From NCBI GenBank assembly GCA_014381725.1, contig JACNLC010000085.1:12569-76568 (forward strand): DNA of 64,000 nucleotides, written 5' to 3'. The position numbers were made by a program, and so were the translations under genes. The DNA comes from Fidelibacterota bacterium. GTDB taxonomy: Bacteria > Fidelibacterota > Marinisomatia > SCGC-AAA003-L08 > JACNLC01. Numbering within the stretch: the first letter of the stretch is position 1; every line of letters starts with the position of its first letter. The notes under the pieces are model-generated. The model had not been told where the DNA came from. It searched no databases and worked only from the letters and a program-made list of their open reading frames with translations. Shown here in pieces: positions 6,203 through 50,568 of this stretch.

Positions 6203-6222
6203 ATAAAAGAAAGGTAAGTAAA

Positions 6223-16604: not shown

Positions 16605-16621
16605 TGATTGGAGAATGAAAC

Positions 16622-18648: not shown

Positions 18649-18759
18649 TCAATGTCTCCGAATCAGCCATCTACGGAGGGTAAGAACAAGTACCACAACT
18701 CCAATTACGGTAATCAAAACTCCCAAAAGACGAGGAGAAATTAGCTCGAGGAATTCCAT
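18649..18759 (-). CDS. candidate 36-aa single-TM micro-protein translationally coupled to the Fe-S oxidoreductase
   Basis: Own translation: MEFLELISPRLLGVLITVIGVVVLVLTLRRWLIRRH*. Its ATG overlaps the upstream TAA by 1 nt (TAATG). It is below the track's length cutoff. Confidence 0.3.
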   Translation of the reverse strand: MEFLELISPRLLGVLITVIGVVVLVLTLRRWLIRRH

Positions 18760-20762: not shown

Positions 20763-20884
20763 TTTTACCTCACTATTTCAGTTAAATTAGAAAGTCAAAA
20801 GTATTAGTTTCTAGTAACTTTCATTTTGTCCTGTCCTAAAATTGTTAATCGATATTCTTAAACTTCTCTATGAGTCTCGAATTA

Positions 20885-21844: not shown

Positions 21845-21845
21845 A

Positions 21846-22625: not shown

Positions 22626-22773
22626 TTTTTCTCCAATATTCATTTATAGAATTTCAATATTTACACAAAATTTTGGTTCAAAAATTACGAATAAAACAGG
22701 ATAAATAACTCTTGTTTTTTATAAATCTGATATAGAAATTTTCAATCAACTGGTTAGCTGGGCTCCAAACAAC

Positions 22774-25315: not shown

Positions 25316-25323
25316 GAAATTAT

Positions 25324-28323: not shown

Positions 28324-28382
28324 TAGAAAATAAAAAATAAACAACGAACAGACGAAATAAAGCAAGTTCGTAACTTCGCCTT

Positions 28383-28416
28383 GTCCGCCAATGTTTTTCA
28401 GGTGGGCGTTTTCGTT
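28383..28416 (+). terminator. weak candidate terminator after the C10 gene
   Basis: GTCCGCC (28383-28389) pairs with GGTGGGC (28401-28407), including two G-U wobbles. 11-nt loop, followed by GTTTTCGTT. Confidence 0.3.
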
Positions 28417-28491
28417 ATAAACCTTAAAACAATTGCTTGCTACTAACAAAACTAACAAAGTAAATTTACTTCTCGAAAACACAATTTAATT

Positions 28492-28596
28492 ATGAAAAGT
28501 TTCAAAATTATATTATTATTATTGACCATTTGGTGCGTTTCCGTTTCAGCACAAGAAACTTCTGCACCTATTTTTGTATATCCAACCATAACTTGA
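28492..28596 (+). CDS. 34-aa signal-peptide-only mini-ORF (possible gene remnant or small secreted peptide)
   Basis: Own translation: MKSFKIILLLLTIWCVSVSAQETSAPIFVYPTIT*. Sec-type signal with an SAQ-E cleavage-like site. No obvious SD. Confidence 0.25.
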   Translation: MKSFKIILLLLTIWCVSVSAQETSAPIFVYPTIT

Positions 28597-28617
28597 CAAA
28601 CTTAAAAAGGAGCAAAA

Positions 28618-32972: not shown

Positions 32973-34961
32973 TCACTTTCCCCAAATCAATGGAGATTCT
33001 ATTACCTCGTGATTGCCTTTGGTGATATTTCTACCATTCTCGAAAACTAGGTAACCGTATTTTCCGTAGTGTGGAATTTTACGCGCTAAAGGAATAAGTT
33101 CTCGCTGATTGGACGAATAGAACAACAACCCTGATTTACCATTATTTTGTTTAAATGCCCAAACAAAACTGTGGTCGTCGGAAGTCATAGATTGTTTGTA
33201 AATCTCCAATGAACCATTCGATTTAAGATGTTTCAATTTCGCTGGAATTACACCTAAATAAATTAGGGGTATCTCCGGAATTTCATCTGTTGTAAGAAAC
33301 AATTGTAATATATTTTCTTCGTTGATATGTCCGTTAAATGACCGCGCAAGTTCTGTCCATTCATCTGATTTCTCTGGAACAACAAATCCAAATTCAGGTT
33401 CACCTAACAAATGTCTAATAGTCATATCCATTTCGGAATCATCCAAAGTTCGCATAAGATGGTAATTTGGGTCTATTACTACTTTTTCAACTTCGTGATT
33501 TAAATCCAATTTAGTTAACTCAGAATCAAGAAAGATTTTCGATAAGTTTGTGTTTTCTTTTTCAAAAGTTAATACTTCAACAAACATCGGTTTAATACTA
33601 CCTATTTGTTTGACATAAAAATCATCACTTTCTTTAATTAACTCTAATTTAGGATTTCCCTTTTCATCAATCCACTTTTGTTTCAATTTAGTTAAATCAT
33701 TGCCACTTATTTCTTCGAAAGCATTGAAAAATTCGTCATAACCAGTTTTCTGCCATTGATGTTTTTTTATAACTAATTTTAGAGCTTCTATAAATTTGTC
33801 TTGACCAAGATATTCTTCAATCATATGAAAAATCATAGCTACTTTCCCGTAACCAATTGCACGAGATGACATATCAGTTCTGCTTATAAAATCTGCTGGA
33901 GCAAAATCATTTTCAACTGTAGTATAGATTGAATAATCTTTCAACAAATTCTTGCGATACTGTTCTGCATCATTTTTTGATTTTTGCAATTTATATAAAT
34001 AATCTGCTTGATATGATGTTAGTCCCTCGCACCAATTACCGCCATCTCCGACATACACAGAATTACCCCACCAATTGTGCAAAACTTCGTGTCCGAGTGA
34101 TGTATAAACAATAAACGGCAAATGAATAACCGACCGCCCCAAAACAGTATAAGATGGCATTCCATATCCAGTTGGAAAAAAGTTCTCCACAACCGCAAAT
34201 TTTGAGAATGGATAAGGTGATAACATTTCAGAATACATTTGCACAAATTCTATACTTTTATTCAGATAATCTATTGCCAATGATGAATCTTCAGGGAAGA
34301 AATAGGTGTAAAACTCTATATCATTTACAACTTTTTTGCTGATGACCCACTCTGCTGCAGTTACAAAAATCCCATCTACTTTGTGCAGTGTTTCAAACTC
34401 AGATAATGTAATATCCAACATAAAATTTGTTTTACCTTGATGGATTAATTTCCCTTCAGAAACTGCACTCCATTTTTTGGGAAGATAAATTTTAGTATGG
34501 AAAGTTAGCAAGTCCTCATCTGCCATTGGATAATATCCAGCAGATGGCGACAAAAATACGCCTTGTTCAGAAATTGTTGCGTCAATTTCCATCGCAATTT
34601 TTTCGCGACTGAATGTTGATGATTCTGTATCCTGCAACATCACACCTGAATAATTAACAGAAATATCAGCAGTTTTGGATTCCATCATTTTTCGTTGGAT
34701 AACAATTAGATTCAATCCAACATTTTTATCAAATACTTGTTCAAATTCTCGTGTTCTCCCATTGATAGTTAAGGAATGAATTTCAAGTATATCGGATAAA
34801 TAAAATTCGAAATTACCATCAGAAGTAATCTCAAATGTATCTTCAGCAGTTAATTTATTTGATGCTGGATTAATATTCATCAAAATATCGTGATGAGTAA
34901 TAATTGATTCTGAAAATAGAAATCGAATTCCAACTACCAATACTAAAACTAATTTATTCAT
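32973..34961 (-). CDS. M1 family metallopeptidase (secreted)
   Basis: GHEVLHNWWGN (HExxH) plus the downstream WCEGLTSY Glu. Signal peptide starts at MNKLVLVLVVG (ATG 34961); the track start at 35015 abuts the upstream stop. Confidence 0.75.
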   Translation of the reverse strand: MNKLVLVLVVGIRFLFSESIITHHDILMNINPASNKLTAEDTFEITSDGNFEFYLSDILEIHSLTINGRTREFEQVFDKNVGLNLIVIQRKMMESKTADISVNYSGVMLQDTESSTFSREKIAMEIDATISEQGVFLSPSAGYYPMADEDLLTFHTKIYLPKKWSAVSEGKLIHQGKTNFMLDITLSEFETLHKVDGIFVTAAEWVISKKVVNDIEFYTYFFPEDSSLAIDYLNKSIEFVQMYSEMLSPYPFSKFAVVENFFPTGYGMPSYTVLGRSVIHLPFIVYTSLGHEVLHNWWGNSVYVGDGGNWCEGLTSYQADYLYKLQKSKNDAEQYRKNLLKDYSIYTTVENDFAPADFISRTDMSSRAIGYGKVAMIFHMIEEYLGQDKFIEALKLVIKKHQWQKTGYDEFFNAFEEISGNDLTKLKQKWIDEKGNPKLELIKESDDFYVKQIGSIKPMFVEVLTFEKENTNLSKIFLDSELTKLDLNHEVEKVVIDPNYHLMRTLDDSEMDMTIRHLLGEPEFGFVVPEKSDEWTELARSFNGHINEENILQLFLTTDEIPEIPLIYLGVIPAKLKHLKSNGSLEIYKQSMTSDDHSFVWAFKQNNGKSGLLFYSSNQRELIPLARKIPHYGKYGYLVFENGRNITKGNHEVIESPLIWGK

Positions 34962-35015
34962 ATTTTTCCTTTTTCTCTCACGCAAATGCAGAAAGCGTTT
35001 TGTGTAAAATATCAA

Positions 35016-37634
35016 TTATTTGACAATCACTAGGGTGTGATTTTCTGGAAATTGTAGATATTTCTCAGCTACTTTTTGGATATCTTCAACTGTAATCTTT
35101 TCATATTTTTCAAAGCGGTTAAGTGCTTTTTGATAATCGTCAGAATAAAACTCAAAATATCCCATATAAAATGCTTGACCAATCCGAGTGAGATTTCTCA
35201 TCATATAATGACCTTTACTCGAGTTAATAGTTTTTTCGATTTCGTTTTGTGAAATATCCAATAATTTATCCGGATTAAAATACGATTTCATTCCGTTAGT
35301 GGCTATGTCAATATTTTCGATTCCTGTTCCAATTGATGCTGTCAGCCAACCAATATTACCTTCGTAACCGTCTGACATTCCCAACGAATACGCCAATCCC
35401 TGAGTTTCTCGTAAATCAAACATCATACGATACGATAGTAAATCTGTCATTAACGAAAATGTCGGTTTATCGTCTTTCTCAATTTCAAATTTATATCCCA
35501 ATCTAATCTGAGCTTGTTCCTTGCTCATATCAATTATTTTCTCACTAAAGTCAGTTGATAGTTCTACACCAGAATCAAATTTCTTTGTTGGTTCAGCAAC
35601 TTTTGTCCAAATTGAGTTAAAAATGTTAGTTAGTTCAGAATGAGAAATTCCTGATGAAATCGAAATGATATAATTCTCAGGTAAAAAATATCTTTTTTGT
35701 AGCGATGTTAAATTGTCAATATTCATCATTGATACAGCTTCCATCGTGCCACTAACTTTCCCTATTGAGGGATGATTGTTGCCAAGAAATAACCTCCAAA
35801 ACTCTTTTGATGCAGTTTCTCTTGCGGTGCTTTGTTGCATCCCCAATCTCATTCTTGCATTTGAAATTCCTTCACCAATATTCTCTTCTGCCAAAATTGT
35901 GTTGGATAGCATATGGGTCAATAATTTTATTCCTTCTTCTGCATCTTTTTCCAAACATTCAAATCGGATATAACCAAATTCCGGTGAATTGTAATAATTA
36001 TCGTATGGAATAAATCCCATATCCTTGAATTTTATTTTAGCACCAATGGTTTGCAATTTCTTTTGAAGTTCTTCGGCTGAATATTCATCAGTTCCGGATT
36101 CCAACAACGAATGTAAGATTTCCGCTCCACCGGAAAGAGGTCCTTCGATTACATTTCTGTTCTTGATTAAAATGTGCATCCCAAACATTTCTGAACCACC
36201 ACCAGATGCAGTTACTAAAGTCACCCCAGACGGCAGTACCGTTTTATCATAAACTAACTTAGTATCCTTTGTGTCTTTTGTGGTAAGTCCTTTCGGGAAT
36301 ACAAAGTTATAATGCCGATTTGAGATTAATAACTTTTCGCCGGCTTCAATTATTTGTAAAGGATTTAACTCGCGAATGTTTTGCAGTTTTGACAACACAA
36401 ATTCCCCGCCACCCATTGCCAATTCCGGTGCTTTCATCATAGGATAATAATGCAGTTGGTCGAGTAACGATGCTTCTTCTACAATCATTTCATTCACTTT
36501 AAGTGATATCATTTCTGCAGTAATTATCGTTGATAATCTCTGTTGGATTAATGAAAGTTCATCGTCAAATTTTACTAAAATATCCGATGGATTTTCTTCG
36601 GCAGAAGCTGTAAAATCAATAATCACTTTCCCAAAAGATGGATAATTAGTGTAAGAAACATAAGGGCTGTAATCACCAAGAGTTGTATTAAGTTCTTCGG
36701 TTAATACATCTATCAAAAACTCCGTTTCTAAGGAATATTGTTTTGAAAATGCAGGGGCATCAAAAACTATTTGTCCGTGAATCCGGTCTGTTTCAAAATT
36801 CGTTTGGTTGACAGTCATAGATGGAGCGAAACTAACAGGTTGATAGAATTCTACAGGCATAGGTTGATATTGGCCATAATTATTTTCTAACATCAATTTC
36901 AATTGAGTTTCATCAAAACTACCAATAACTGTTAACAGCATATTGTTTGGGACATAATGGTTTTTAAAAAAATCATATACATCGTCTCTGTTGAGATTTT
37001 CTATCGTATTTGGAGTCCCAAGAGTTGGCAGTCCAACACCTGAATCACCAAAATTCTTTCTGTCAAAATAATTCTGGATTTCATATTCGTTTCTGTCTCT
37101 GTCTTTGCGGATTTCTTCAATTACAATGCCGCGTTCTTTCTCAAATTTCTCTTCCGGGATTATCGAATTAAACAGCATATCGGATTGGACATCCATCCCA
37201 TTTTCAAGATATTCAGATGGCATTAGCAAAAAATAATCAGTGAAGAATTTTCCTGTAAATGCGTTTGAATACATTCCATAGAAATCAGTTTCTTCATAGA
37301 GTTCATCTTGAGTTCTTTGTTCAGTTCCATTAAACAGTAGATGCTCAAGCATATGAGACATTCCCGAAGTGCTATAATTTTCGTAAGCTGAACCAACTCT
37401 AACGGACATATTCAAACAAACCATCGGAGAAGCATCGTTCTGAATCGCCAAAACTTCCATCCCATTTTCGAGATAAAATGTTTGAGTATTCTGTGGAAAT
37501 TGTGTTACACTAGGAACTTCAATCTCAGAATTTAACATTTGTTTATTGTGAGTGTTATGTTTGCAAATTGCTTGTTTGTGATGCGCACATCCAAATAGTG
37601 AAATGATTGATATTATTAAAATTATTTTCTTCAT
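35016..37634 (-). CDS. M16 family (pitrilysin/insulinase-like) zinc peptidase, fused two-lobe form, probable lipoprotein
   Basis: Lipobox-like ISLFGC. Inverted zinc motif HMLEHLLFNGT with downstream ...RGIVIEEI. The 872-aa length fits fused active and inactive M16 halves. Confidence 0.8.
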   Translation of the reverse strand: MKKIILIISIISLFGCAHHKQAICKHNTHNKQMLNSEIEVPSVTQFPQNTQTFYLENGMEVLAIQNDASPMVCLNMSVRVGSAYENYSTSGMSHMLEHLLFNGTEQRTQDELYEETDFYGMYSNAFTGKFFTDYFLLMPSEYLENGMDVQSDMLFNSIIPEEKFEKERGIVIEEIRKDRDRNEYEIQNYFDRKNFGDSGVGLPTLGTPNTIENLNRDDVYDFFKNHYVPNNMLLTVIGSFDETQLKLMLENNYGQYQPMPVEFYQPVSFAPSMTVNQTNFETDRIHGQIVFDAPAFSKQYSLETEFLIDVLTEELNTTLGDYSPYVSYTNYPSFGKVIIDFTASAEENPSDILVKFDDELSLIQQRLSTIITAEMISLKVNEMIVEEASLLDQLHYYPMMKAPELAMGGGEFVLSKLQNIRELNPLQIIEAGEKLLISNRHYNFVFPKGLTTKDTKDTKLVYDKTVLPSGVTLVTASGGGSEMFGMHILIKNRNVIEGPLSGGAEILHSLLESGTDEYSAEELQKKLQTIGAKIKFKDMGFIPYDNYYNSPEFGYIRFECLEKDAEEGIKLLTHMLSNTILAEENIGEGISNARMRLGMQQSTARETASKEFWRLFLGNNHPSIGKVSGTMEAVSMMNIDNLTSLQKRYFLPENYIISISSGISHSELTNIFNSIWTKVAEPTKKFDSGVELSTDFSEKIIDMSKEQAQIRLGYKFEIEKDDKPTFSLMTDLLSYRMMFDLRETQGLAYSLGMSDGYEGNIGWLTASIGTGIENIDIATNGMKSYFNPDKLLDISQNEIEKTINSSKGHYMMRNLTRIGQAFYMGYFEFYSDDYQKALNRFEKYEKITVEDIQKVAEKYLQFPENHTLVIVK

Positions 37635-37681
37635 TTGTTTTCCTTTTTCATATCTAATCTGTTTTTAGCAGTGTACAATTT

Positions 37682-38974
37682 CTATTTTCCAGAAACTGTT
37701 AATCCACTAAACTGAATCCACGGGATTATTGATGTTCCATCATTTGTTCGTTCAGAAGAAATGTTTTTGATGTTCATAAACATTTTTGCGATATTACCTG
37801 AAACCATCGTTTCGGAAATCGGGAATTTCACTTTTCCATTCTCAATGTAGTAACTATTTTTAGCAACTCCAGAGAAATCTCCATTTTCACTCGGATTCCC
37901 ACCTGAAAATCGTGCCATTAAAATTCCCTGTTTCACAGATTTAATTAAATCGTCTAGTGATTTGTCTCCTGCATCAATTACGAACGCACCACCACTATTT
38001 ACAGCTTTTTCTAAACCAGTTTTGTTTGAACCATATAGTCCAAGCAAAAATGTTTTCAGTTCGCCTTTATCAATAACTGTACTGTTTTTTGTTTCGTATC
38101 CATCCGAAGTTACAAAATACCCGACTTCAATATCATTTGATACTGGTCTGCAATGTATGGATAGCTTTTTGTCAGCAATCTGCTCATTTAGTTTATCTTT
38201 ATAAATGGATGTTCCGGAGATGAGTGGATAATCACTAATCATAGATTCAAATGCAGAAACAAAATCACCAAAACATTCTGGTGTGATGATTACATCGCCT
38301 ACAAATTTCTCAGGGATTTGTTGAGTTGTAATTTGTTCTTCTGACTGTTTCATTAATAATTCTATGTTCGCATATTCGTGTAGTGATTTAGCAAGTTCTA
38401 TTGATGAAAATCCCGCATAATTAAATGATGAAGTATTCTTGCCATCTTTAGAAGTAAACATCGGGCCAAATCCATACACCCCCTTGTTAATTGTAAAATC
38501 AATACCATTTGAGTTCATCAAAATAGTTTGAGCATAACTAAAATCTAAAATTGCTTGTTCCAAAATTACTTTCGGATATTTGTTATTGGTAAATTCCACA
38601 AATTCTTTTAGTCGAGAATACATTAAATCTAAATTTGGTTCTTTTGATCCTAAATTAAAAGTCTTAGCTGGTTGGAATTCAGAAATGTCGTTTGCTGTGT
38701 CGGGCTTGGTTGAGTTAGTAATATCCATCAATTCAACTATCGCTTGGTCAATAGATTCTTTGTCTAATTTATTTAAACTTATATTTCCCTTTTTATTTTC
38801 TTTGATAGCTTTTAGTGAAAGATTTCTATTAAATGTCGTTCTAAACAAACTTAATTCACCAGCATCAACATTGAGCTCATTTTTGGAGCCCACAGAAAGA
38901 GAGCAACTTACTTTATCTGCACCAGCTTTGATAATTTCATCAATACAATATTTTACAATTTCTCGATTCGTCAT
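37682..38974 (-). CDS. PmbA/TldE-family protein (pair B)
   Basis: C-terminal pattern GDFSGVAKNSYYIENGKVKFPISETMVSGNIAKMF. Start is placed at ATG 38974 (MTNREIVKYC), 1 nt after the tldD stop, with GGAGG upstream. The track's longer start overlaps tldD. Confidence 0.75.
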   Translation of the reverse strand: MTNREIVKYCIDEIIKAGADKVSCSLSVGSKNELNVDAGELSLFRTTFNRNLSLKAIKENKKGNISLNKLDKESIDQAIVELMDITNSTKPDTANDISEFQPAKTFNLGSKEPNLDLMYSRLKEFVEFTNNKYPKVILEQAILDFSYAQTILMNSNGIDFTINKGVYGFGPMFTSKDGKNTSSFNYAGFSSIELAKSLHEYANIELLMKQSEEQITTQQIPEKFVGDVIITPECFGDFVSAFESMISDYPLISGTSIYKDKLNEQIADKKLSIHCRPVSNDIEVGYFVTSDGYETKNSTVIDKGELKTFLLGLYGSNKTGLEKAVNSGGAFVIDAGDKSLDDLIKSVKQGILMARFSGGNPSENGDFSGVAKNSYYIENGKVKFPISETMVSGNIAKMFMNIKNISSERTNDGTSIIPWIQFSGLTVSGK

Positions 38975-38975
38975 T

Positions 38976-40355
38976 TTATCTACCTCCAATATTAATTTTG
39001 CATTTAACTGCAGGGCCACCCATACCAACAGGAATTTGTTGCTTTTTCCCGCACATTCCACCACTTGACCAAGCCATATCATCTGAAATCATTGTAATGG
39101 TTTTGAGCATATCAAAAGCAACACCAGAAATTGTGGTATTGCGAATGGCTCGTTTAATTTTACCTTTTTTTATTTCGTAACCCAGCACAACTCCGAACAT
39201 GAATTCGCTGGTAGAATCCGCCTGCCCGTTACTCGATTTAATCAAATAATATCCATCATCAATTGATGCAATCATTTCTTCAAGTTTACTAGTTCCCGGA
39301 ACGATAGCTGTGTTTCGCATTCTAACGAGTGGTTCGTCATAAAATCCAAATGCTCGAGCATTCCCGGTTGGAGACATTTTGAGTTTCATTGCGGTTTCTT
39401 TATTGTGCATAAAATTCTTTAAAATTCCGTTTTCGATAATAACCACATCCTCACCAGTTGTGCCTTCATCATCTACATAAAGTGGAACTGGACAAGTTTT
39501 ACCGTGTGCAGTATGGGCATAATCGATTAAAGTAACCATTTCTGAAGCTACTTTTTGATTGAGATAATCGCCAGCAACAGAGCCACCCAAAACTAAATCA
39601 CCTTCAGTTGTATGTCCAATGGCTTCGTGAGATAATATTCCTGCAAGGTCTGCATCTAAGATAACATCTTTATAACCTGCTTCTGCGTGAACTCCTTCTG
39701 ATTTTTTCATTAGATGTTCATATTGTTCAGCAATTTTTGGGAACAAATCTTTTGGAGATGTAAACAAATCCTCAAACTGTCCTAATCCACCATAAACATC
39801 ATACAAACTAATTGGTTCTCCATTTACTACAACCGTCATATCGATATAAAATATCACGCGTGGAATCATAGAATAACTATGCGAACCGGTGGAAGTAATT
39901 ATTAATTTCTCCATATCTAAACCTGACATCGTTACCGCTCGCGAATCAAGATTTGGATAAGTTTTATTAATGTGATCATCAATTGTTTTGAGAAATTCTA
40001 TTAACTCTTTACGAGATAATTTTTGTTTTTTAGTTGAAAAATCAATGTCATAATTTCCAGTGGTAAATGGTAAATCGTTCATCATCAAATTTTCTTTTGA
40101 ACTCAAGAATGTTGCATTTCCTGAAGCTGATTTTATTACTCGTTTAATCTCTTCGTCAGAAACATTTGGATTTGATGCAAGTCCCCAATTCCCTTCGCTA
40201 TATACTCGTGCTGACACACCACTTTTAGCAGACTTGGTATTTCCCCAAATATCTCCTTCAACTATTGATATACCATCACTACGATTTTCTTGAACTCGCA
40301 ACTCTGTATATCCTTTGAATAAATTTGTAAACTGTGTTAAATCTTTTCTAATCAT
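38976..40355 (-). CDS. tldD: TldD-family metalloprotease (pair B)
   Basis: HEAIGHTTEGD (HExxxH) and C-terminal GMCGKKQQ...VGMGGP typical of TldD. Confidence 0.8.
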   Translation of the reverse strand: MIRKDLTQFTNLFKGYTELRVQENRSDGISIVEGDIWGNTKSAKSGVSARVYSEGNWGLASNPNVSDEEIKRVIKSASGNATFLSSKENLMMNDLPFTTGNYDIDFSTKKQKLSRKELIEFLKTIDDHINKTYPNLDSRAVTMSGLDMEKLIITSTGSHSYSMIPRVIFYIDMTVVVNGEPISLYDVYGGLGQFEDLFTSPKDLFPKIAEQYEHLMKKSEGVHAEAGYKDVILDADLAGILSHEAIGHTTEGDLVLGGSVAGDYLNQKVASEMVTLIDYAHTAHGKTCPVPLYVDDEGTTGEDVVIIENGILKNFMHNKETAMKLKMSPTGNARAFGFYDEPLVRMRNTAIVPGTSKLEEMIASIDDGYYLIKSSNGQADSTSEFMFGVVLGYEIKKGKIKRAIRNTTISGVAFDMLKTITMISDDMAWSSGGMCGKKQQIPVGMGGPAVKCKINIGGR

Positions 40356-40485
40356 AATTTTCCTTTATTAGTTAATAGCAAGGAGCTGAATCTCGCAAAG
40401 TCGATAAGACCCAAAATAATCTACCTTTGGTTTCTCTTTTCCGATTTTGACTTTATAAGCTTTCTACTTTATAAACTTTCAACTC

Positions 40486-41808
40486 TTACAGTGTAAGTGA
40501 AAACGATTTTAGCAAAATTCCAGGACAAACGACTCCACCTAAAGCTCTACCTTCGTAAGTTTCAACATCTAGATTTAACTTTGCTACATTATCCACTTCT
40601 TCTAAATTTTCTCCGAAGAAATTATACAAACTATCATCAAATCGCATTGTTTCGATTGGTGCTACTATTTCTCCATTTTCTACCCAAAAACAGGCGTATC
40701 GTGTCATCCCTGTAATTCTTCCGCCGATGTTGTCGCTCCAATTTAGATAATGCAGATTGCTTAAATAAATTCCTGTGTCCAATTTTTGGAAAATGTCTTT
40801 TTTGTCTAAAGTTCCCGTTTTCATTATTGGAGATCTAAGTGATTCACCTTCACCAGCATTGTTGGATTTTTTTTCATATTCTTTAGCGGTTCGTGTGCTA
40901 ACCAATGTATTTTCAAGATTGCAGTTTTCGATAAGTGATAACTGTTCCGGAGCAATTTCTCCGTTTCCATTAAATCGTGGAACAAGTCCTTTCCTGAAAT
41001 CTTCAGATAATCCAAACAAAGGAGATAGTTTTGCATTTTCGTTTCGCATTTTCCCGAAAGCACTTTGTCCCTGTTGAATTGATGCTTCGCTGATACCATT
41101 CCACGAGAACATACCCAAAATATCTGCTACACCTGCTGGAGCGATATAAGTCCGATAATTACCGGGTTTAAGTTTCTTAGCAGGTTGTTCCATCATTCTC
41201 AATTTTTTGATGGAATCTGCCATTGTTGTTTCGTAATCTTTTTGATTCCATTCAGAACCAGCAAAGGTTGTTTTCACCATTTTCTCATCTGATGTGATAA
41301 GAGAATAATCTAAAGAAAATGTTTCTGTGGAAAACCAATGTTTCTGCCCTGCTGAATTTGCATTGCCTATAAATATTTTCCCTGATGCCCAAATACCGGA
41401 TAAATCCACACCTTGCATTGCTGGAGTAAGAGCATTTACAGCATCTTCAATTGGTAATAAATTACCTTTATGTTCTTCCTCACTTGAACCTGTATCTTCT
41501 GGTAAAACAATATAAGGATCTTCCGGAAGATGAACAACTTCCTTGCGAAGTCGCTGTAATTCTTGTTGCACATTAGCAATATCAGATTTTTCATCGCTGG
41601 TAACGGTAATTCCACCACTACAGGTTTTGTTTTGGTGAATTAGTTCGAGGGAGATGCTCACTTCGTCAACCAATCCTGTTTGTCGGATTTTGGATTTACT
41701 AAACCTAATAAATTGGCTGTTTTCTCCACTAAATGATATTTTTAGATGCTCATCTTTTGAAATCTGATTAAGTAATGCATCACTTATTTTATTAAATAAC
41801 TTTTTCAT
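40486..41808 (-). CDS. PmbA/TldE-family protein (pair A)
   Basis: C-terminal GGRITGMTRYACFWVENGEIVAPIETMRFDDSLYNFF pattern. No HExxxH motif. Confidence 0.7.
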   Translation of the reverse strand: MKKLFNKISDALLNQISKDEHLKISFSGENSQFIRFSKSKIRQTGLVDEVSISLELIHQNKTCSGGITVTSDEKSDIANVQQELQRLRKEVVHLPEDPYIVLPEDTGSSEEEHKGNLLPIEDAVNALTPAMQGVDLSGIWASGKIFIGNANSAGQKHWFSTETFSLDYSLITSDEKMVKTTFAGSEWNQKDYETTMADSIKKLRMMEQPAKKLKPGNYRTYIAPAGVADILGMFSWNGISEASIQQGQSAFGKMRNENAKLSPLFGLSEDFRKGLVPRFNGNGEIAPEQLSLIENCNLENTLVSTRTAKEYEKKSNNAGEGESLRSPIMKTGTLDKKDIFQKLDTGIYLSNLHYLNWSDNIGGRITGMTRYACFWVENGEIVAPIETMRFDDSLYNFFGENLEEVDNVAKLNLDVETYEGRALGGVVCPGILLKSFSLTL

Positions 41809-41885
41809 ATTTTCCCTTATTTACAATAATTTTTACCACAAAGTTGTTACAATATTCATACTTGAAATTCGGTCTCCTGCTTCCC

Positions 41886-43325
41886 CTACACTCCGCCAAA
41901 AACTTCAATATCTTCAAACAGACAAACCGGTGATGCGTGTCCAACTCGAATCGCCTGATTTGGTTCACCTTTTCCGCAATATGGAGTCCCATACATTTTG
42001 AAAGTGTCTTTATTCCCAACCATTTTCAGATTATTCCAAAATGGAATAGTAATTGCTCGATAATTCGGATTTTTTACTGCTTTTGTGAATTTACCGTTTT
42101 CGATTAATTTACCATATTCACATCCAAACTGGAATTTGTTGCGATAATCATCAATTGACCACGACCGATTTGATTCCATATACACGCCTTTTTCTATTGA
42201 TGATATAATTTCGTCAAACGAAGATTCTCCCGGTTCAAGATTCAAATTCGCCATACGGTCAATCGGAGCACGATTCCACGAACTCGCTCTGAAATTTGCT
42301 ACCCCCTGCATACCAGAACGAACTTGACTTTCCATCCCACCTTGAGGTCTGAGTAAAACACCATCTTTGATGATATATTCTTTTGTAGCTTTCATCCCGC
42401 CATCATCAAAATTATACGATGCGTGTTGGTGTTCAATCGTTGGGTCAAAAGTGATGTTCATTAATTTTGAGCCGTATTGCAAATTCCCAAAATCTTTTTC
42501 TCGGACGAAACTCCAACCTGCATAATTTCTTTCATCGCCTAAAATTCTGTCAAGTTCAGTCGCGTGACCTACACTTTCGTGTATTTGTATTAACATTTGA
42601 TCAGGTGATAGTACAATGGGCAATTTCCCTGTTGGACATTCCTCAGCAGTTAGCAACTCTATTGCTTGCTTGCTGACTTTTTCAGCATTTTGAAGAATTT
42701 CATCTTCATTGATAGTTTCCATCCCAACTTGGTGACTGTTTGCCATCAATCCGCCATCTGTGCGAGTTTGTGTGATAATACCATCTTGAGCCGTTGCAGA
42801 AAAATCGCTTGAAATAATTAGAAGTTTTTGTTCAACATCGCTTCCGTTTGAGCTGACATATTTCATTTCAGACTCAACGAATCTGAAAAGACTAAACGCA
42901 CTAACGATTTTATCGGATAATTTCAATTTATCATAAGCTTTAAGAAGTAAATTGTTTAAGTCTCCTGCAGAATATGTGTTCAAATCTTGCGAGTAAGACG
43001 AAATATATTTGCCTTTTGCAATTGGTCGAACTTTGTCTGTAAAATGATGAAGCGAATACTTGGATGCAATGTTCGCCTGCTTCAATGCTTTTTCAGCGGC
43101 TTTTTGGATTGCGCTACGAGTAAGCTGATGTGTTCCATAATATCCAAACTGACCGTTAGATAAAACTTCAACCATAACTCCGTGAGTTGTATCTTTAGAA
43201 TTTGCTTGTGGTTTACCATCACGGATAACTCTGTAAGTTGTCGATTCACGAACTTCGCGTAACCCAATCCATTCTGCATTGATATTAATTCCGCTAATTG
43301 CTGATTTTATGTCGAAATGATTCAT
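41886..43325 (-). CDS. TldD-family metalloprotease (pair A)
   Basis: HESVGHATELD (HExxxH) and C-terminal CGKGEPNQAIRVGHASP. ATG 43325 follows GAGGGA; the track used TTG 43337. Confidence 0.8.
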   Translation of the reverse strand: MNHFDIKSAISGININAEWIGLREVRESTTYRVIRDGKPQANSKDTTHGVMVEVLSNGQFGYYGTHQLTRSAIQKAAEKALKQANIASKYSLHHFTDKVRPIAKGKYISSYSQDLNTYSAGDLNNLLLKAYDKLKLSDKIVSAFSLFRFVESEMKYVSSNGSDVEQKLLIISSDFSATAQDGIITQTRTDGGLMANSHQVGMETINEDEILQNAEKVSKQAIELLTAEECPTGKLPIVLSPDQMLIQIHESVGHATELDRILGDERNYAGWSFVREKDFGNLQYGSKLMNITFDPTIEHQHASYNFDDGGMKATKEYIIKDGVLLRPQGGMESQVRSGMQGVANFRASSWNRAPIDRMANLNLEPGESSFDEIISSIEKGVYMESNRSWSIDDYRNKFQFGCEYGKLIENGKFTKAVKNPNYRAITIPFWNNLKMVGNKDTFKMYGTPYCGKGEPNQAIRVGHASPVCLFEDIEVFGGV

Positions 43326-43534
43326 TGATTCCCTCAAAAATAATAGTTGTTCTGTAAAAATACGACGAGAATTTACGGTATAAAGTCGTTGCAGACCAAA
43401 ATAATCTCTTTAAGTTTCCAGTATATAAAAATCTGTCCAAAACGATTTCAATTATTTCTGTTCGGCAAATGATTCTAGTTATTTTATTTCACATTATAAC
43501 TTTCTTAACTTTTACATATTGATAGGCGAGTAAT

Positions 43535-44581
43535 ATGACTTCAAAGAAGATAAAATTAACGAGTTTTAGTTCGGGTGCTGGCTGAGCATGTAAATTAAGT
43601 CCATCGGACTTAGCTCAAGTTTTGAGCACATTAAAATCAACTACACCTGGAAATGTTATCGGATTCGATTCATCAGAAGATGCAGCTGTGTATCCGATGA
43701 ATGATGATCAATTTCTCCTGCAAACTGTGGATTTTTTCACTCCGATTGTAGATGATCCATTTACATTTGGACAAATTGCGGCGGTGAATGCACTCTCCGA
43801 TATTTATGCGATGGGTGGAAAGCCACTATTTGCATTAAATGTTGTCGGTTTCCCAAGTGATGATTTACCGATTTCTGTCCTATCTGATATTCTGCTTGGC
43901 GGAGAAGATATTGCATCAAAAGCTGGAATTTCAATTTTGGGTGGGCATACAATCAAGGACAAAGAACCAAAATACGGAATGGTTGTTACAGGAATTGTTA
44001 ATAAAGAAAATATGACTAGAAACGATTCTGCAAAACAAGATGATTTGCTGGTTTTGACTAAACCACTCGGTTCTGGAATTATTACAACTGCAATCAAACA
44101 AAATTTTGCAGATGAACAGATGATTGAGTCTGTGCAAGATGTAATGAAAACTCTCAATAACACAGCTTCTGAAGTGATGACAGATATTGGAGTAAATGCT
44201 TGTACAGATATTACCGGTTATGGATTATTGGGACATTTGTTAGAGATGTGCAAATCCAGTCAGGTTACTGCAGAAATTGGGTTTAGTTCGATTCCATTTT
44301 TGGAAGGTGTATTTGAATTTGCTCAAAAGGGCATTGTACCTGGTGGTTCAAAACGAAATTTTGAGTTTGTTTCTCCTAACATTAAGTTTGATAATGCACT
44401 TGCAGACCATCAAAAATTGATGCTTGCTGATGCACAAACTTCAGGTGGATTGTTAATTTCTGTATCGGAAGACAAATGTCAATTACTCATACAAGAATTG
44501 AAAAAACAAAATGTAACACCAGTTGCAATAATCGGTAGAATTATAGGAAAGACTGATAGTTTTATAAAAGTTCACAATTAG
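43535..44581 (+). CDS. selD: selenide, water dikinase (selenophosphate synthetase) with in-frame TGA = selenocysteine at codon 17
   Basis: Own translation from ATG 43535: MTSKKIKLTSFSSGAG[TGA 43583-43585]ACKLSPSDLAQVLSTLK..., continuing in the same frame into the track ORF at 43622. The GAG-U-xCK loop corresponds to E. coli SelD SHGAGCGCKISP. Downstream motifs DAAVY, DFFTPIVDDPFTFGQIAA and TDITGYGLLGHL match. Confidence 0.85.
43596..43612 (+). promoter_or_regulatory. candidate bacterial SECIS hairpin for the selD UGA
   Basis: TAAGTCC-ATC-GGACTTA forms a perfect 7-bp stem beginning 10 nt after the UGA. This is comparable to the ~11-nt spacing known for E. coli fdhF. Confidence 0.5.
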
Positions 44582-44663: not shown

Positions 44664-47534
44664 TTATTTCAATAACAACAATTTTTGTGTTTGTGTAAAA
44701 TTCTCAGATTGCAGTTTTACAAAATAAATCCCACTTGGATAATTTGATGCATTCCAAGTTACTTCGTGATATCCAGCTTCTTTTATACCATTTAGCAAAG
44801 TTTCTATCAATCTACCATTTATATCAAACATTTGTAGAGACACTCGGCCGTTTGTTTCTACCATTGGAACACTATAACCAATAACCGTTTTGGGATTAAA
44901 TGGATTTGGATAAGCATTTAGCAATTGATAATTAACAAATGATAATTGAGAATTATTCTCCAATTGTTCTTCTCCAAAATCGTCCATTACAACTTCAACA
45001 AACTCCTGTGCAGAACTGGTTTCCATAAAATAGAGCGGAAATCCAAGAACGAAGACTTTATTCTCACCAATTGATCTAATTCCGCAGACTTCGTTCTCCC
45101 ACTCGGAATCATCGGAATCAGAATCAAAACGATAAATTGGTTCAGCACCATTCAACGGAACAAATTTATTAACATTTCTTAATTTATAATCCCATTGAGA
45201 CGGAGCTTTTGAAGAATCAACTTCCATATTTGCGAAACCAGTATCCCCAAAAACACCAAAGAAATCTTCTGAAGTATTAAACTCGATATTTGCAATATGT
45301 AAATAATCCTGCAAAAATGCTTCATCTTCATTCGATAATTGTTTCCAAGATGAAAGTAGTAAATTCCCACCCGCATCAATATACTGTTTTAGATTGTATG
45401 TATCACTATCAAGCGGATTGTTGTTGATGTCGTCATTATGCCACACAATTGAAGAATACTTTGCCATTTCGAATAATTCAGGCAGTCCTTGATCGTCTGC
45501 ATCCCAATTTGTGGTTAGATAATTAGATAACAACAAATCGTAAAAGTCGTCAACTTCTTCATCTGTTGGAAATGGATTACTCTGAGAATTATCTTTTGTC
45601 TTATCCACAATTAAAATTCCGTTATCAAATGTAAACTCCACAGGAATCATTGAAATTTCATTTGAGAATTTACTAAAATACTCCAAATTCGTGTCAAGTA
45701 TTGCAACAATTTTATATTGGTATTCTGTTCCTGAAATTACATTTGTGTCATTATAATCGTTTTCAGTAATTGGCTCAGTATTGATTTGTGTCCATCCTTC
45801 TGAATCATATTTTCGATAAACATTAAAACCTTCAATTGTTGGATCAAAATATTCTTCCCACATTAACATAACAGAGCCATCGCGATTACTATTAGCTTCT
45901 TCGATTTCTGGAATTTGCTCCGAAAATCCGTGATCCAATACCCAATTATTTGGGTCCCAATCAATGTTTGGGAATTCTATTTCAGAAAAATATGTGTAAA
46001 TATTTACACCATCTTCACTCCAAACAGAATATTCTACACCACTCATTTCAAACGGAATTGGCATATTAAAAGATGTTGTTTCACTTCCATAAGAAACCAA
46101 AGTAATTTTTATAGAATCTGTCAACTCGGAAGAATATGTTGCATAGTCATAATCCGGACTTCCAATACCATAAATCCACTCTTGGAAAAACCAATTTAGG
46201 TCGCTTCCATAGTGTGATTCAAATACACTTTGTAAATCTTCTGTAACTGCATTTTGGTAGGCATAAATTTCAAGATAATCCTGAAGTGAAGCAAAATATA
46301 TTTCATCTCCCACCACTTTTCGCAACATATGGTTTACCCACGCCCCTTTGTTGTAAATAATTCCGTCAAATATATCCCAAACTCCTATTGTATCAATCGT
46401 GAACACTGATCTCGAATCACCCCATCCAAACTCCATACTATTCATATAGTTGTGATATGAATTTACACCACTCGTATTTTCTACATAGAGTGCCTCGGAA
46501 TATGTTGCAAATCCTTCATTAAGCCATCCGTGTTGCCAATCTCTGCAAGTTACTTTGTCACCAAACCATTGGTGAGCAAGTTCGTGAACCTGCACTATTC
46601 CGCTCGTTGTCGCCGTGGTTACACAAGTCTGATGTTCCATAGCCCAACTACTATTTGTGACTTTAGCAATCGCAAATTTCTCATCGACAAAAGGATATAG
46701 TCCATACAAATCAGAGAAGATCGGAAGTGCCGTTTCAACATCGTGAAATCCTGATGGAACCGTGCCAGTTGTATAATAAATAATAGGCATCGAGTCATTT
46801 TCGGCGTAATGAAAATATTCTATTGTTTCTAAATACGGATAAACATTCACAACAAACAGGTAAGTTGCAATTGGATAATTTTCTAACCAATGGTGAGTTT
46901 TTGTGTCATCGTAATTATTGATTATCTCTTGGAGAACACCGTTTGAAGCAACAATCAAATCATCTGGAACTGTAAGTTTTAAATCAACATAATTTGCTTT
47001 ATCAGATGGATGATCTTTGCAAGGCACCCAATCGGATAATCCGTAAGGACAGTTAAGAGAATAAAACCCTCCACTAGAATATACAATGCCACCTTCCCAC
47101 GCCACGCCCGAACCAGTAGCGCCTGAATATTCAATTGTAATTGATAGAGTATCATTTTCCAAAAAATTACTTTCAAAAAGCAAATTAATACGATTGTTAA
47201 AATGATTTTCGGATAAAACTGATATTTGATTATCATCTACAAACACTGACACATTTTCAATATCTAGATGGTCTTTAGCGTCAAGAATTATTTCATGTGT
47301 CTCGTTTTTTATGGATACATCTATAATTACTGAACCATCAACTTGTTGAGTTTCTGGATCAATTTGGATATCTAGCACATAGCTTAGTACATCATAATCA
47401 TTTTGTTCTGGTAATAAATCTCGATGAAATTCAATTGGATTTGAATTTTGATTCTTGATTTGACATTCTTTTGTTGGAATGTTAGATGAATACAGAAATG
47501 TAATAATTGACAATATAATTATAATTTTCTGCAT
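44664..47534 (-). CDS. M1 family aminopeptidase (aminopeptidase N-like) with C-terminal extension and T9SS sorting domain
   Basis: HELAHQWFGD and WLNEGFATY motifs. Signal peptide starts at MQKIIIILSIITF (ATG 47534, AGGAG upstream). C-terminal YPNPFNPKTVIGY...SGIYFVKLQSENFTQTQKLLLLK. Confidence 0.8.
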   Translation of the reverse strand: MQKIIIILSIITFLYSSNIPTKECQIKNQNSNPIEFHRDLLPEQNDYDVLSYVLDIQIDPETQQVDGSVIIDVSIKNETHEIILDAKDHLDIENVSVFVDDNQISVLSENHFNNRINLLFESNFLENDTLSITIEYSGATGSGVAWEGGIVYSSGGFYSLNCPYGLSDWVPCKDHPSDKANYVDLKLTVPDDLIVASNGVLQEIINNYDDTKTHHWLENYPIATYLFVVNVYPYLETIEYFHYAENDSMPIIYYTTGTVPSGFHDVETALPIFSDLYGLYPFVDEKFAIAKVTNSSWAMEHQTCVTTATTSGIVQVHELAHQWFGDKVTCRDWQHGWLNEGFATYSEALYVENTSGVNSYHNYMNSMEFGWGDSRSVFTIDTIGVWDIFDGIIYNKGAWVNHMLRKVVGDEIYFASLQDYLEIYAYQNAVTEDLQSVFESHYGSDLNWFFQEWIYGIGSPDYDYATYSSELTDSIKITLVSYGSETTSFNMPIPFEMSGVEYSVWSEDGVNIYTYFSEIEFPNIDWDPNNWVLDHGFSEQIPEIEEANSNRDGSVMLMWEEYFDPTIEGFNVYRKYDSEGWTQINTEPITENDYNDTNVISGTEYQYKIVAILDTNLEYFSKFSNEISMIPVEFTFDNGILIVDKTKDNSQSNPFPTDEEVDDFYDLLLSNYLTTNWDADDQGLPELFEMAKYSSIVWHNDDINNNPLDSDTYNLKQYIDAGGNLLLSSWKQLSNEDEAFLQDYLHIANIEFNTSEDFFGVFGDTGFANMEVDSSKAPSQWDYKLRNVNKFVPLNGAEPIYRFDSDSDDSEWENEVCGIRSIGENKVFVLGFPLYFMETSSAQEFVEVVMDDFGEEQLENNSQLSFVNYQLLNAYPNPFNPKTVIGYSVPMVETNGRVSLQMFDINGRLIETLLNGIKEAGYHEVTWNASNYPSGIYFVKLQSENFTQTQKLLLLK

Positions 47535-47624
47535 AGATATTCTCCTTATTTTCAAATCTAACTTAATTGAGTTGCAAAAACACAGCAACAATAACACAAA
47601 ATATTATGCAAGAAAATTACTTAT

Positions 47625-48920
47625 CTATGAGTAGGCGTGCAGTCCCCCGAAAAAATAGTTACCATAGAAAGTAATAAAAATCATCACAGTTCCAATAACT
47701 GACAAAATTGCTAGGCGACCACCGCGCCAATCGCGATTATATCTTGCGTGGAGTGCTGCAGAATAGAAAAACCAAACCAACAATGCTCCAACTTCTTTTG
47801 GGTCCCAACTCCAGAATGAGCCCCAAGCTTGTTCTGCCCAAATCGCACCTGCAAACAATGCTCCAACAGTATAAAGCGGATAGCCCAAAGAAACTGCTCG
47901 GTAATTGATTTCATCAAACAAATCTTGATTACCTTCCATTTTATTAATTTTTGGACCAAGTTTTATGTAAATGAAATAATACAAAATTGGAAATAAAACA
48001 AGAATCAGAACATATACCGAACCTAAAAATTCAAAGAAACGCCAAATACTTCCTTGATGTTGTGCTGGAGTAATTAGAATCATTCCATTATGCGACAAAA
48101 TACCAACAATCAAACTTCCTAAAGCAAACGATAACATATAAATTGCGAACAAAATTCCACCATAACCAGATTTATCTGATTTTTGCTTGAAAAAGTAACT
48201 AAATATTCCAAGCATCGGAACCATTAACAATCCGAGAATAGCAACCAATTGCCCTAAAATTGTTCTAGCAGAATCATAATCAATCCTTGAAGTAAATTTC
48301 TGCATTACTAAATACGCAGTATGATGTGGTGTTAAATTTGTAATTTTCAAAATCAAAAATATTACCAATGGGATATACACCATAAAAATCATCGCTTGCG
48401 AAAAGAACATCTTTTTTTGCTCACCAATCTCGGAACTATATTTGTGATCTTTTAATAAATACAACAGACTAACAGCTCCTGCAACAATAAACGCCCCCGA
48501 ACCAAGTGCCGCCATAGAAATATGAATTGTCAACCAATTACTTTGTAGCGCTGGCATCAAATTTTCTGCAGGAGTGCTATCCAGTAAAGCTGCAGCTGCG
48601 TTCAGCATTACAATTATTGGTGAAATAATAACTCCCACAATCGAACTTTTATAACGGATGATTACAAATATCATAATTCCAACTCCTGCCCAAGACATTA
48701 ACATCAAATGCTCAAACATATTTTGGAAACGAATACTACCTACTATCCCCCATTTTACAACGAAAGCGAAAGTTTGTAGAAACAATCCAACTGCAAACAT
48801 CCATAAACCAGTTTTTTGGAAGATAGCTTTTTTGAATGAAAAGAAGAAGGCATAACTGAAAAATCCAATCAGATACGCAATAAACATAAACCAAAATAAG
48901 TCTTGATATAATTTTTCCAT
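47625..48920 (-). CDS. ccsA: cytochrome c biogenesis protein CcsA/ResC (System II heme handling)
   Basis: Polytopic membrane protein with the Trp-rich WWD motif WGSFWSWDPKEVGAL and flanking His residues. Confidence 0.8.
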   Translation of the reverse strand: MEKLYQDLFWFMFIAYLIGFFSYAFFFSFKKAIFQKTGLWMFAVGLFLQTFAFVVKWGIVGSIRFQNMFEHLMLMSWAGVGIMIFVIIRYKSSIVGVIISPIIVMLNAAAALLDSTPAENLMPALQSNWLTIHISMAALGSGAFIVAGAVSLLYLLKDHKYSSEIGEQKKMFFSQAMIFMVYIPLVIFLILKITNLTPHHTAYLVMQKFTSRIDYDSARTILGQLVAILGLLMVPMLGIFSYFFKQKSDKSGYGGILFAIYMLSFALGSLIVGILSHNGMILITPAQHQGSIWRFFEFLGSVYVLILVLFPILYYFIYIKLGPKINKMEGNQDLFDEINYRAVSLGYPLYTVGALFAGAIWAEQAWGSFWSWDPKEVGALLVWFFYSAALHARYNRDWRGGRLAILSVIGTVMIFITFYGNYFFGGLHAYS

Positions 48921-49432
48921 TATTGCACCTTACCAATTTGAATAGTCGCCATTTCTATGATATATTTTCCGTCAGTAGTTTTTTTATAACCTTGATATCC
49001 CAAGAATTCCACAAAATACTTTTGTTCAGGTTTTACTGTATGCATCCCCGGCATTTGACTATAACAAATTTGATAATGTTTAAACTCACCGTTTTTCTCA
49101 AAATGCACCTTAATTGCTGGATTCATTTCTGCATCTGATTGAGAATTTATCTTCCCATTTCCAATTGGTTCAACCAACATACAATGAGGTTCAAATTGAA
49201 TAATTTCTACGCCCCATTCATCATCAATTTGATATTTTTCTCCAAAGGAAATTTCCACATTTTCTTGGATAATTTCCATTTGTGGTTGTTCTGCGTGTTG
49301 ATGTGGCACAGCCTCTTGCGGTAACATTTGATGAGTTGGCGATTTCCCTATAAGCTCATCTTTAAATGCGATTACAACCAAAACTATAAATAATATTATA
49401 GCAGGAATGACAAAAACTTTGTTATTTTTCAT
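48920..49432 (-). CDS. hypothetical membrane-anchored periplasmic protein inserted between resB and ccsA
   Basis: N-terminal TM anchor (VFVIPAIILFIVLVVIAF). His/Gln/Pro-rich stretch HQMLPQEAVPHQHAEQPQ, then a ~110-aa beta-rich domain. ATGA overlap with the resB stop and TAATG overlap with the ccsA start. Confidence 0.5.
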   Translation of the reverse strand: MKNNKVFVIPAIILFIVLVVIAFKDELIGKSPTHQMLPQEAVPHQHAEQPQMEIIQENVEISFGEKYQIDDEWGVEIIQFEPHCMLVEPIGNGKINSQSDAEMNPAIKVHFEKNGEFKHYQICYSQMPGMHTVKPEQKYFVEFLGYQGYKKTTDGKYIIEMATIQIGKVQ

Positions 49433-50568
49433 AAACTTCTAATCCTTTCGCTCAATGTAATTAATTCTCTTTCAAATGATATTTTGTTTTTAGTAGTTCT
49501 TCCACCTATGTGAATTTTATGTTTTGTAATTGCAATAAAAATATCTTTCCTCCAAAAGAAGAATGACATCATCATACCTACAACTCCAAACAACATTCCT
49601 AAATAAATTATGGATTTACCACTATTTTTTTTCAAACTGAAACCTGTAATCCAATTCTTTCTATCTTTCATATTTTTTCGCATTTCTTGAATTTGTTTCC
49701 AATTTGGATTGTTTTGAATATACTCAAGTGGTTTATAATCGGATTGATGGATACTTAAATTTTTATACAAAAACGGACTATTTACAGTTACTTCGTGATT
49801 TCTGATTTTGTCTCCATTATGGTCAAATACTTGTATAAATGAACGGAAATCAGAAATATCTGTACCAATTCCGCCTTTGTAATAACCTAAACGAAAACTA
49901 TCAACAACAACTGTAATAAATTCATTTTCTGCAGTTGGAATATTCCACGCTGAAAAACTCGGATATTTTTCGATGAATTCTGTGAAATCAGATTTATGTT
50001 CTTTAGCAATCATATATTGGAATTCTTTTTTCGCAGTTGTGCTATATATCATTCCACCAATTACAATCACAAGTAATCCGATGTGAGTTATTAAATGTCC
50101 TAAATTACTCCACCTTAATTTAGTTGCAGAAATTTGAGTAGAAACATCATCATATTGAGTATCTATAGAATAGAATTGCTTTTTCAACAATTCAATTATT
50201 TTAACGGAGCTATCGTCAGATTTCTTTTTGACGGATAAATTTAATTTCATTTTCTCAATTTCATCAGCAGGTTTTAAGTTTGGTTTATACATAGATTTGA
50301 AAACCGGCTTTACATTTTGTATAACGCATAGAAACAAAGATAATACTAATAGCCAAATCAATGCCATATACCACCAAGAAGAATATGGAGAATGTTGTTG
50401 CAACATTGTGTATAAAATGGAAGATTTCCCGAAGAAGTCTGGATATTCGTCCATCAACATTGATAGTAGCGATACAACACCCAATACAATTAGGATAATT
50501 ATCGCAAATTTCATTGAAACCAGTAGATTCCAAAGTTTAGTAAATATATTATTATCTCTTTTGCTCAT
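49429..50568 (-). CDS. resB: cytochrome c biogenesis protein ResB/Ccs1 (short form)
   Basis: N-terminal LVSMKFAIIILIVLGVVSLL segment typical of ResB. Two to three N-terminal TM helices, a periplasmic loop and a C-terminal TM. Operon context with ccsA. Confidence 0.7.
   Translation of the reverse strand: MSKRDNNIFTKLWNLLVSMKFAIIILIVLGVVSLLSMLMDEYPDFFGKSSILYTMLQQHSPYSSWWYMALIWLLVLSLFLCVIQNVKPVFKSMYKPNLKPADEIEKMKLNLSVKKKSDDSSVKIIELLKKQFYSIDTQYDDVSTQISATKLRWSNLGHLITHIGLLVIVIGGMIYSTTAKKEFQYMIAKEHKSDFTEFIEKYPSFSAWNIPTAENEFITVVVDSFRLGYYKGGIGTDISDFRSFIQVFDHNGDKIRNHEVTVNSPFLYKNLSIHQSDYKPLEYIQNNPNWKQIQEMRKNMKDRKNWITGFSLKKNSGKSIIYLGMLFGVVGMMMSFFFWRKDIFIAITKHKIHIGGRTTKNKISFERELITLSERIRSL

Follow-up and report, generated by a model that had tools for sequence, protein, structure and literature searches.

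Selenophosphate synthetase (SelD; selenide, water dikinase) has been described as ranking second in distribution among the selenoprotein families of prokaryotes (PMC13188914), and in the marine metagenomes of the Global Ocean Sampling (GOS) it is among the most widespread selenoproteins, with 357 selenocysteine (Sec) forms and 558 Cys homologs (PMC2398784). The bacterial selenocysteine insertion sequence (bSECIS) of Sec-containing SelD has already been described (PMC4561486), and the mis-annotation of selenoprotein genes is a textbook problem (PMC1088965). In the bSECISearch model, such an element has a stem of 4-16 bp and a loop of 3-9 nt with a G in loop positions 1-2, usually as G[G|U] (PMC13188914), the loop lying 16-37 nt from the UGA and the minimum free energy (MFE) being -7.5 kcal/mol or lower (Zhang and Gladyshev, summarised in PMC13188914 Fig. 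2). Here, we analysed a selD gene in a 64,000-nt stretch of DNA from a Fidelibacterota bacterium (contig JACNLC010000085.1; the whole stretch is hereafter called the window), for which an initial annotation had proposed Sec encoded by an in-frame TGA and a SECIS-like hairpin downstream of it. With a probability of about 0.88, we consider the locus best explained as a Sec-containing SelD made by recoding of the UGA at 43583-85, with the second of two adjacent hairpins (hairpin 2) as the likeliest SelB-binding element.

Read directly from ATG 43535-43537, the frame gives MTSKKIKLTSFSSGAG-TGA-ACKLSPSDLAQVLS... and closes at a TAG codon (coordinates in Table 1); the start codon, the TGA and the 7-bp hairpin reported in the initial annotation are all present in the sequence. 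For profile and structure searches, Cys was put in at residue 17 of the 348-aa product, which scored 397.6 bits against the equivalog TIGR00476 (cut-off 125) and 385.8 bits against the equivalog NF002098 (cut-off 299), the NCBIfam SelD equivalog coverage extending over residues 1-342 and thus including the N-terminus. The Pfam domains AIRS (PF00586) and AIRS_C (PF02769), which had been suggested together with the SelD TIGRFAM as a check on the identity of the gene, match residues 48-155 and 168-345, respectively. In a search of solved structures, E. coli SelD (3u0o) aligned over residues 2-312 (E = 2.6e-75), with LTSFSSGAG-U-ACKLSP of the window placed over LTQYSHGAG-C-GCKISP, so the TGA stands exactly opposite the catalytic Cys17, as had been proposed, and Lys20 is kept. 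Because this alignment spans them, the 29 residues 5′ of the TTG from which gene callers start are genuine SelD sequence carrying the catalytic loop, and the profiles likewise begin upstream of the TTG, at residue 1.

The N-terminal loop LT-x-S-x-GAG-[C/U]-x-CK-[IL]-SP is therefore kept between the two proteins, although E. coli SelD has Cys (TGC/TGT) at position 17, without a recoding signal there, whereas the window gene has UGA/Sec. SelD of Aquifex aeolicus (PDB 2yye/2zod) belongs to the same family (E = 2e-64), and its native form presumably carries Sec at the same N-terminal position. Compared with the Sec-SelDs of A. aeolicus and of marine GOS and Sargasso data, the window gene shares the Sec site, an in-frame UGA followed by a coding-region stem-loop, and the mis-annotation (PMC1088965, PMC2398784, PMC4561486); only lineage and sequence details differ, and the window motif U-A-C-K keeps the second Cys, like C-G-C-K of E. 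coli. Judged by these alignments, the frame at 43535-44581 is very likely a complete 348-residue SelD with Sec17 in the glycine-rich N-terminal loop. Its equivalog-level homology suggests that the protein would synthesise selenophosphate from selenide in an ATP-dependent manner.

Relatives of the gene fall into two classes at the recoded position. GTDB species representatives and metagenomes each supplied 80 related loci, and we counted codon 17 in the 157 with an intact, ungapped N-terminus: it is TGA in 88 and TGC/TGT in 69, within conserved flanks (LT-x-x-S-x-G-x-G before and x-x-K-[ILV] after). A sense codon for neither Cys nor Sec, which the initial annotation had named as counter-evidence, occurs in 0 of these 157 loci. 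The closest relative, locus L001, is a metagenome-assembled genome (MAG) with 82% identity that shares both the ATG and the TGA; the next-closest relatives, at 53-58%, are MAGs of Candidatus Neomarinimicrobiota (SAR406).

Gene callers miss the N-terminus. As pointed out initially, the list of open reading frames (ORFs) opens the gene at TTG 43622 and so yields 319 aa, losing the first 29 codons, and the public gene call on the identical sequence (P0001) likewise has 319 aa. The public models for the window selD and its relatives measure 319-322 aa and are without the catalytic loop. Moreover, database match lengths form two classes, of ~311-321 and ~345-350 aa, which we read as a systematic truncation of Sec forms.

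The public annotation amounts to taking the TGA as a true stop, so that either the gene is a pseudogene or its product is a SelD-like protein that begins at TTG 43622 and lacks the N-terminus. Standard gene callers do yield that model, and Sec machinery was not found in the 64-kb window; yet the 16 codons 5′ of the TGA are kept as SelD sequence, and the 82% relative has the same ATG with mostly synonymous differences. Truncation would remove the Sec/Cys17-Lys20 loop, to which the first part of the SelD models aligns, and 88 relatives from many phyla retain the TGA together with a covarying hairpin, which makes a true stop very improbable. Even less credible, and effectively refuted, is that TGA is a sense codon throughout the genome or an assembly or sequencing error for TGC or TGT, from which it is one base away. 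TGA terminates 11 of the 41 window ORFs of at least 150 aa, among them tgt, resB and the 14406 ORF, from which the initial annotation had already argued for recoding, and for tgt, CoaE and rhomboid the Pfam alignment reaches the model end just before the TGA stop. Because TGA closes these other long ORFs, the locus reflects recoding and not a variant genetic code, and scans of the long ORFs of the window gave no other credible in-frame TGA. As for an error, the window matches ENA contig ERZ24794654 NODE_310 (130.5 kb) without a difference over 20,960 nt, and the TGA with its surrounding 161 nt is identical in contigs of four assemblies with separate sample accessions.

Two abutting hairpins follow the TGA. 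Hairpin 1, the one noticed in the initial annotation, starts 10 nt past the TGA with the arms TAAGTCC (43596-43602) and GGACTTA (43606-43612) around an ATC loop. It folds at -7.5 kcal/mol (z = -4.3 vs dinucleotide shuffles), and 1.6-1.8% of synonymous recodings with the same peptide and the codon usage of the window fold or pair as well. Hairpin 2 begins directly after it, its stem starting 27 nt past the UGA. Since the region is codon-aligned without gaps, Sec-type and Cys-type genes could be compared column by column, for which we used an alignment of 80 distinct Sec-type segments (A1) and one of 68 Cys-type segments (A2). Raw folding energy discriminates the two classes weakly (p ~0.01-0.02), because the Cys class is GC-richer, and we therefore relied on pair-specific counts and per-gene recoding controls.

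By these measures, hairpin 2 is a property of the Sec-type genes. Its paired cells amount to 84.6% in Sec-type vs 44.9% in Cys-type genes, it is fully paired in 53 of 81 Sec-type but 0 of 69 Cys-type sequences, and the excess of pairs over what each gene's own peptide and codon usage would give is 1.79 in the former vs 0.16 in the latter (nominal p = 1e-15). Compensatory change is seen at five of the six pairs in Sec-type genes. Pair 33-43, for instance, in which a synonymous third position (Ala/Thr codon) pairs with a first position (Ser, Gly or Arg codon), occurs there as U-A (23), C-G (21), G-C (13) and U-G (6). The covariation score of the Sec-type genes was reached by none of 500 column shuffles, and the Cys-type genes showed no excess. 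The contrast holds among genes that encode the same peptide motif x-Q-[VI]-L, where hairpin 2 is fully paired in 17 of 23 Sec-type vs 0 of 11 Cys-type genes.

Hairpin 2 also agrees with the bSECISearch model in loop size, stem length, the G-U start of its GUU loop and its spacing (6 bp; loop at 33 nt). Hairpin 1 obeys the rules of size and spacing (3-nt loop, 7 bp, 17 nt from the UGA) but not that of the loop G, as its loop reads AUC, or C-A even with the closing pair open. How the pair stands to the -7.5 kcal/mol rule depends on the segment folded, with -6.5 to -7.5 kcal/mol for hairpin 1 and -5.0 to -6.5 for hairpin 2, which passes the threshold only jointly with hairpin 1 (-12.5); the hairpins are weakened because the genome is AT-rich (~34% GC).

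A further likeness is to the SECIS of E. coli fdhF, whose sequence was verified in 5,419 E. coli genomes. Across the family, the apex of hairpin 2 has the consensus GCAGGUUCUGC, which nearly equals GCAGGUCUGC of fdhF, and the apex in the window is an AT-rich version of it, CAAGUUUUG (CAA-GUU-UUG). In both, a stem-loop within the coding region follows the UGA on its 3′ side and ends in a small, GU-containing apical loop, and the minimal fdhF hairpin alone has only -4.2 kcal/mol. The two differ in that the minimal hairpin of fdhF begins 11 nt after the UGA, with its loop at 18 nt, whereas here the corresponding distances of the GU-loop hairpin are 27 and 33 nt; hairpin 1 fills the interval between the UGA and this hairpin, and no bulged U is evident. 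On the strength of covariation and apex sequence, we regard hairpin 2 as probably the primary SECIS, with a candidate SelB-binding apex, and hairpin 1 as a probable accessory helix or spacer, stabilising or positioning its neighbour.

Under this assignment, SelB carrying GTP and Sec-tRNA(Sec) would bind the apical loop of hairpin 2 within the coding region, and the complex would bring Sec to the UGA in the ribosomal A site in competition with release factor 2; without delivery by SelB, translation would stop after Gly16. Hairpin 1, in its accessory role, may make the fold more stable or reduce the effective distance. The scheme is extrapolated from what is established on Sec decoding in bacteria (PMC13188914, PMC12013277).

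Several points weigh against a Sec-SelD that uses hairpin 2 in this manner. In the 64-kb window, ARAGORN found no tRNA, hence no tRNA-Sec, and Pfam searches of the long ORFs together with precomputed hits found neither selA nor selB. Hairpin 2 alone stays below the strength of the -7.5 kcal/mol threshold, and its loop lies close to the upper limit of the permitted distance from the UGA. Rfam, for which it is uncertain that a suitable model exists, returned no relevant family, either at gathering thresholds over the whole window or at E up to 10 over 43480-43720, where hits were chance matches of the snoRNA type. The p-values are inflated because related sequences are not phylogenetically independent; despite this kinship, the contrast between Sec-type and Cys-type genes and the multiple pair types are robust. 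Finally, it is hairpin 1 that has the offset known from E. coli, with its stem at 10 nt and its loop at 17 nt after the UGA (11 and 18 nt in fdhF).

That offset is one reason to ask whether hairpin 1 is itself the functional SelB-binding SECIS, hairpin 2 being accessory or in another role. In the window, hairpin 1 has greater stability than hairpin 2, and it is perfect both there and in L001 (recoding p 0.005-0.018); its excess of pairs, though small, is significantly larger in Sec-type than in Cys-type genes (0.73 vs 0.36, p = 0.008). Its AUC loop, however, contains neither G nor GU, and many Sec-type relatives that do not have hairpin 1 keep a perfect hairpin 2, e.g. L004, L093, L104 and L112, which have 2 of 7 pairs in hairpin 1. 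Coding for G-P-x-D-L largely accounts for the GGUC/GACC core of hairpin 1, and its paired cells are nearly as frequent in Cys-type as in Sec-type genes (59.2% vs 66.4%; fully paired in 1 of 69 vs 9 of 81 sequences). It is therefore unlikely that hairpin 1 is the SelB site. Of the SECIS-like hairpin proposed initially, the structure stood, being real beyond chance, and the role as main SECIS probably did not. An E. coli-like arrangement could also be sought in a single long hairpin, in which UGAGC (43583-87) and GCUCA (43613-17) form a lower stem, followed by an internal loop and by hairpin 1 as the upper stem. Folding of the 43-nt segment gives this structure as the energy minimum (-11.9 kcal/mol), and the lower stem is paired at 5 of 5 positions in the window, L001, L002, L029 and L058. 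The tandem-hairpin fold is slightly more stable (-12.5 kcal/mol), however, and the partner with which position 43615 covaries is 43625 of hairpin 2 rather than the invariant A of the UGA, because of which most relatives carry a lower-stem mismatch. The lower stem is paired to a similar mean extent in Sec-type and Cys-type genes (3.69/5 and 3.31/5), and the lower helix of E. coli is unwound once the UGA is in the A site (PMC13188914). Given its lesser stability and a lower stem that is not Sec-specific, we set this fold aside as improbable.

Hairpin 2 as the SECIS could also be part of a bipartite, tandem-hairpin recoding signal, in which the SelB-binding GU-loop hairpin lies unusually far from the UGA and the gap is filled by hairpin 1, a helix that may be partly dictated by the G/S-P-x-D-L peptide and further tuned by codon choice. 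This is a tentative proposal, and we hold it to be doubtful. Were it true, the folded gap helix would bring the effective distance down to about the 11-nt spacing that E. coli requires or would make the ribosome pause at the UGA, a solution to the spacing that is not described for the reference fdhF SECIS.

Elsewhere in the SelD family, two Sec-type clades are without hairpin 2: one encoding K-I-N-P-K-D-L-G-x-I-L (L008, L011, L081-L084, L086, L098) and one encoding G-P-K/T-V-L-D-Q/R-I-L (L032, L037, L079, L152, L153, L156; including Nitrospirota MAGs). They carry replacement hairpins, either AAGAUCUC-GGN-GAGAUUUU with the loop ~27 nt after the UGA or GGUCCAAA-GGUU-UUGGACC with the loop at ~19-20 nt, whose loops are G-rich (GGU, GGA or GGUU). 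Because these hairpins are differently placed, the position of the SECIS has shifted several times within the family, in keeping with how variable bacterial SECIS elements are known to be. In three distant relatives (49-51% identity), a tRNA-Sec with anticodon TCA lies upstream of the TGA-type selD (Table 1), which suggests that selC and selD are linked in that lineage; the window and the Marinimicrobia-like loci show no such arrangement.

Table 1. Coordinates of the selD features, of tRNA-Sec genes near selD in distant relatives, and of upstream paralogs (positions in the window, or in the named locus where one is given)
Feature	Position	Strand	Details	Basis
Full selD coding sequence	43535..44581	+	348 codons; predicted Sec = codon 17; stop TAG 44579-44581	Translation and SelD profiles
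In-frame TGA, predicted Sec residue 17	43583..43585	+	Equivalent to catalytic Cys17 of E. coli SelD	Alignment with 3u0o
Hairpin 1	43596..43612	+	UAAGUCC-AUC-GGACUUA; 7 bp (8 with U43595-G43613); loop 17 nt after UGA	
Hairpin 2	43613..43627	+	GCUCAA-GUU-UUGAGC; 6 bp; loop GUU 43619-43621, 33 nt after UGA	
TTG, wrong caller start	43622..43624	+	Leu30 of SelD; within 3′ arm of hairpin 2	ORF list; public calls P0001 to P0003
tRNA-Sec, L140	9856-9951		Within ~300 nt upstream of selD	
tRNA-Sec, L148	9655-9750		Within ~300 nt upstream of selD	
tRNA-Sec, L150	571-667		~2.1 kb upstream of selD	
PmbA/TldD-family paralog	37682-39082	-		
PmbA/TldD-family paralog	38976-40355	-		
PmbA/TldD-family paralog	40486-41808	-		
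PmbA/TldD-family paralog	41886-43337	-		

Two scans of the window for other TGA-split genes, one of long frames and one of small frames in intergenic gaps, gave none that we accepted. Candidates among the long frames were overlaps with neighbouring genes or opposite-strand artefacts, and the four among the small frames were without a convincing hairpin or had a normal ATG right after the TGA (16601-16942). The latter frame contains a small ORF of ~108 aa at 16616-16942 (+), MDKENKKPNQLQIELDKETAQGEYSNLAIITHSPAEF..., which lies between long ORFs with the in-frame TGA just 5′ of its ATG and is not a selenoprotein candidate. Nor did Pfam searches of the long ORFs and precomputed hits reveal selU/ybbB or known selenoprotein families in the window.

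The gene is preceded by a divergent run of peptidase genes at 32973-43337 (-), directly upstream of selD, which comprises M1, M16 and the four tandem PmbA/TldD-family paralogs of Table 1; for the paralog at 37682-39082, the start in the ORF list overlaps the neighbour by ~100 nt, and the public call has 430 aa vs 466 aa. Four large secreted proteins with a C-terminal sorting domain (Por_Secre_tail) of the type IX secretion system (T9SS) are encoded at 23162-30630 (+) and 44664-47597 (-): an S8 subtilase, a C10 peptidase with FG-GAP and beta-propeller repeats, a DUF1565/PMP-repeat protein and an M1 peptidase. Peptidases and T9SS tails fit a protein-degrading member of the Fibrobacterota-Chlorobiota-Bacteroidota (FCB) group or of Marinimicrobia, an affiliation that is suggested by gene content. 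At 18759-22643 (-), the genes for EtfB and EtfA precede one for a 667-aa protein in which a 4Fe-4S dicluster domain is combined with two CCG (heterodisulfide-reductase-like) domains; the set resembles an Etf-linked membrane or iron-sulfur oxidoreductase module. System II cytochrome c biogenesis is represented at 47625-50568 (-) by ResB (49429-50568) and a CcsA/ResC-like Cytochrom_C_asm protein (47625-48920), with an unannotated ORF of 170 aa (48920-49432) between them. A gene for an NfeD-family membrane protease precedes one for flotillin-like FloA (507 bits) at 4853-7215 (+), in the usual operon pairing of NfeD with SPFH/flotillin.

Because Sec-containing SelD is among the commonest bacterial selenoproteins, ours is a re-annotation of low novelty, and it alters no concept. 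Its main value lies in annotation, and its one refinement concerns which hairpin is the conserved SECIS. Bacterial SECIS predictors are known to miss atypical elements (PMC12013277), and the codon-aligned set of 80 Sec-type vs 68 Cys-type segments would be useful for training or checking them. A literature search on Sec use in Marinimicrobia found nothing specific. Since the catalytic loop is missing from the public models, selenium use would be mis-scored in metabolic reconstructions of this marine, Marinimicrobia-like lineage. A Sec-dependent SelD would imply, by a logically sound argument that the initial annotation had also made, that selA, selB and selC are present elsewhere in the genome, and with this whole Sec-decoding apparatus a need for selenium and, likely, further selenoprotein genes that are split or truncated in the annotation.

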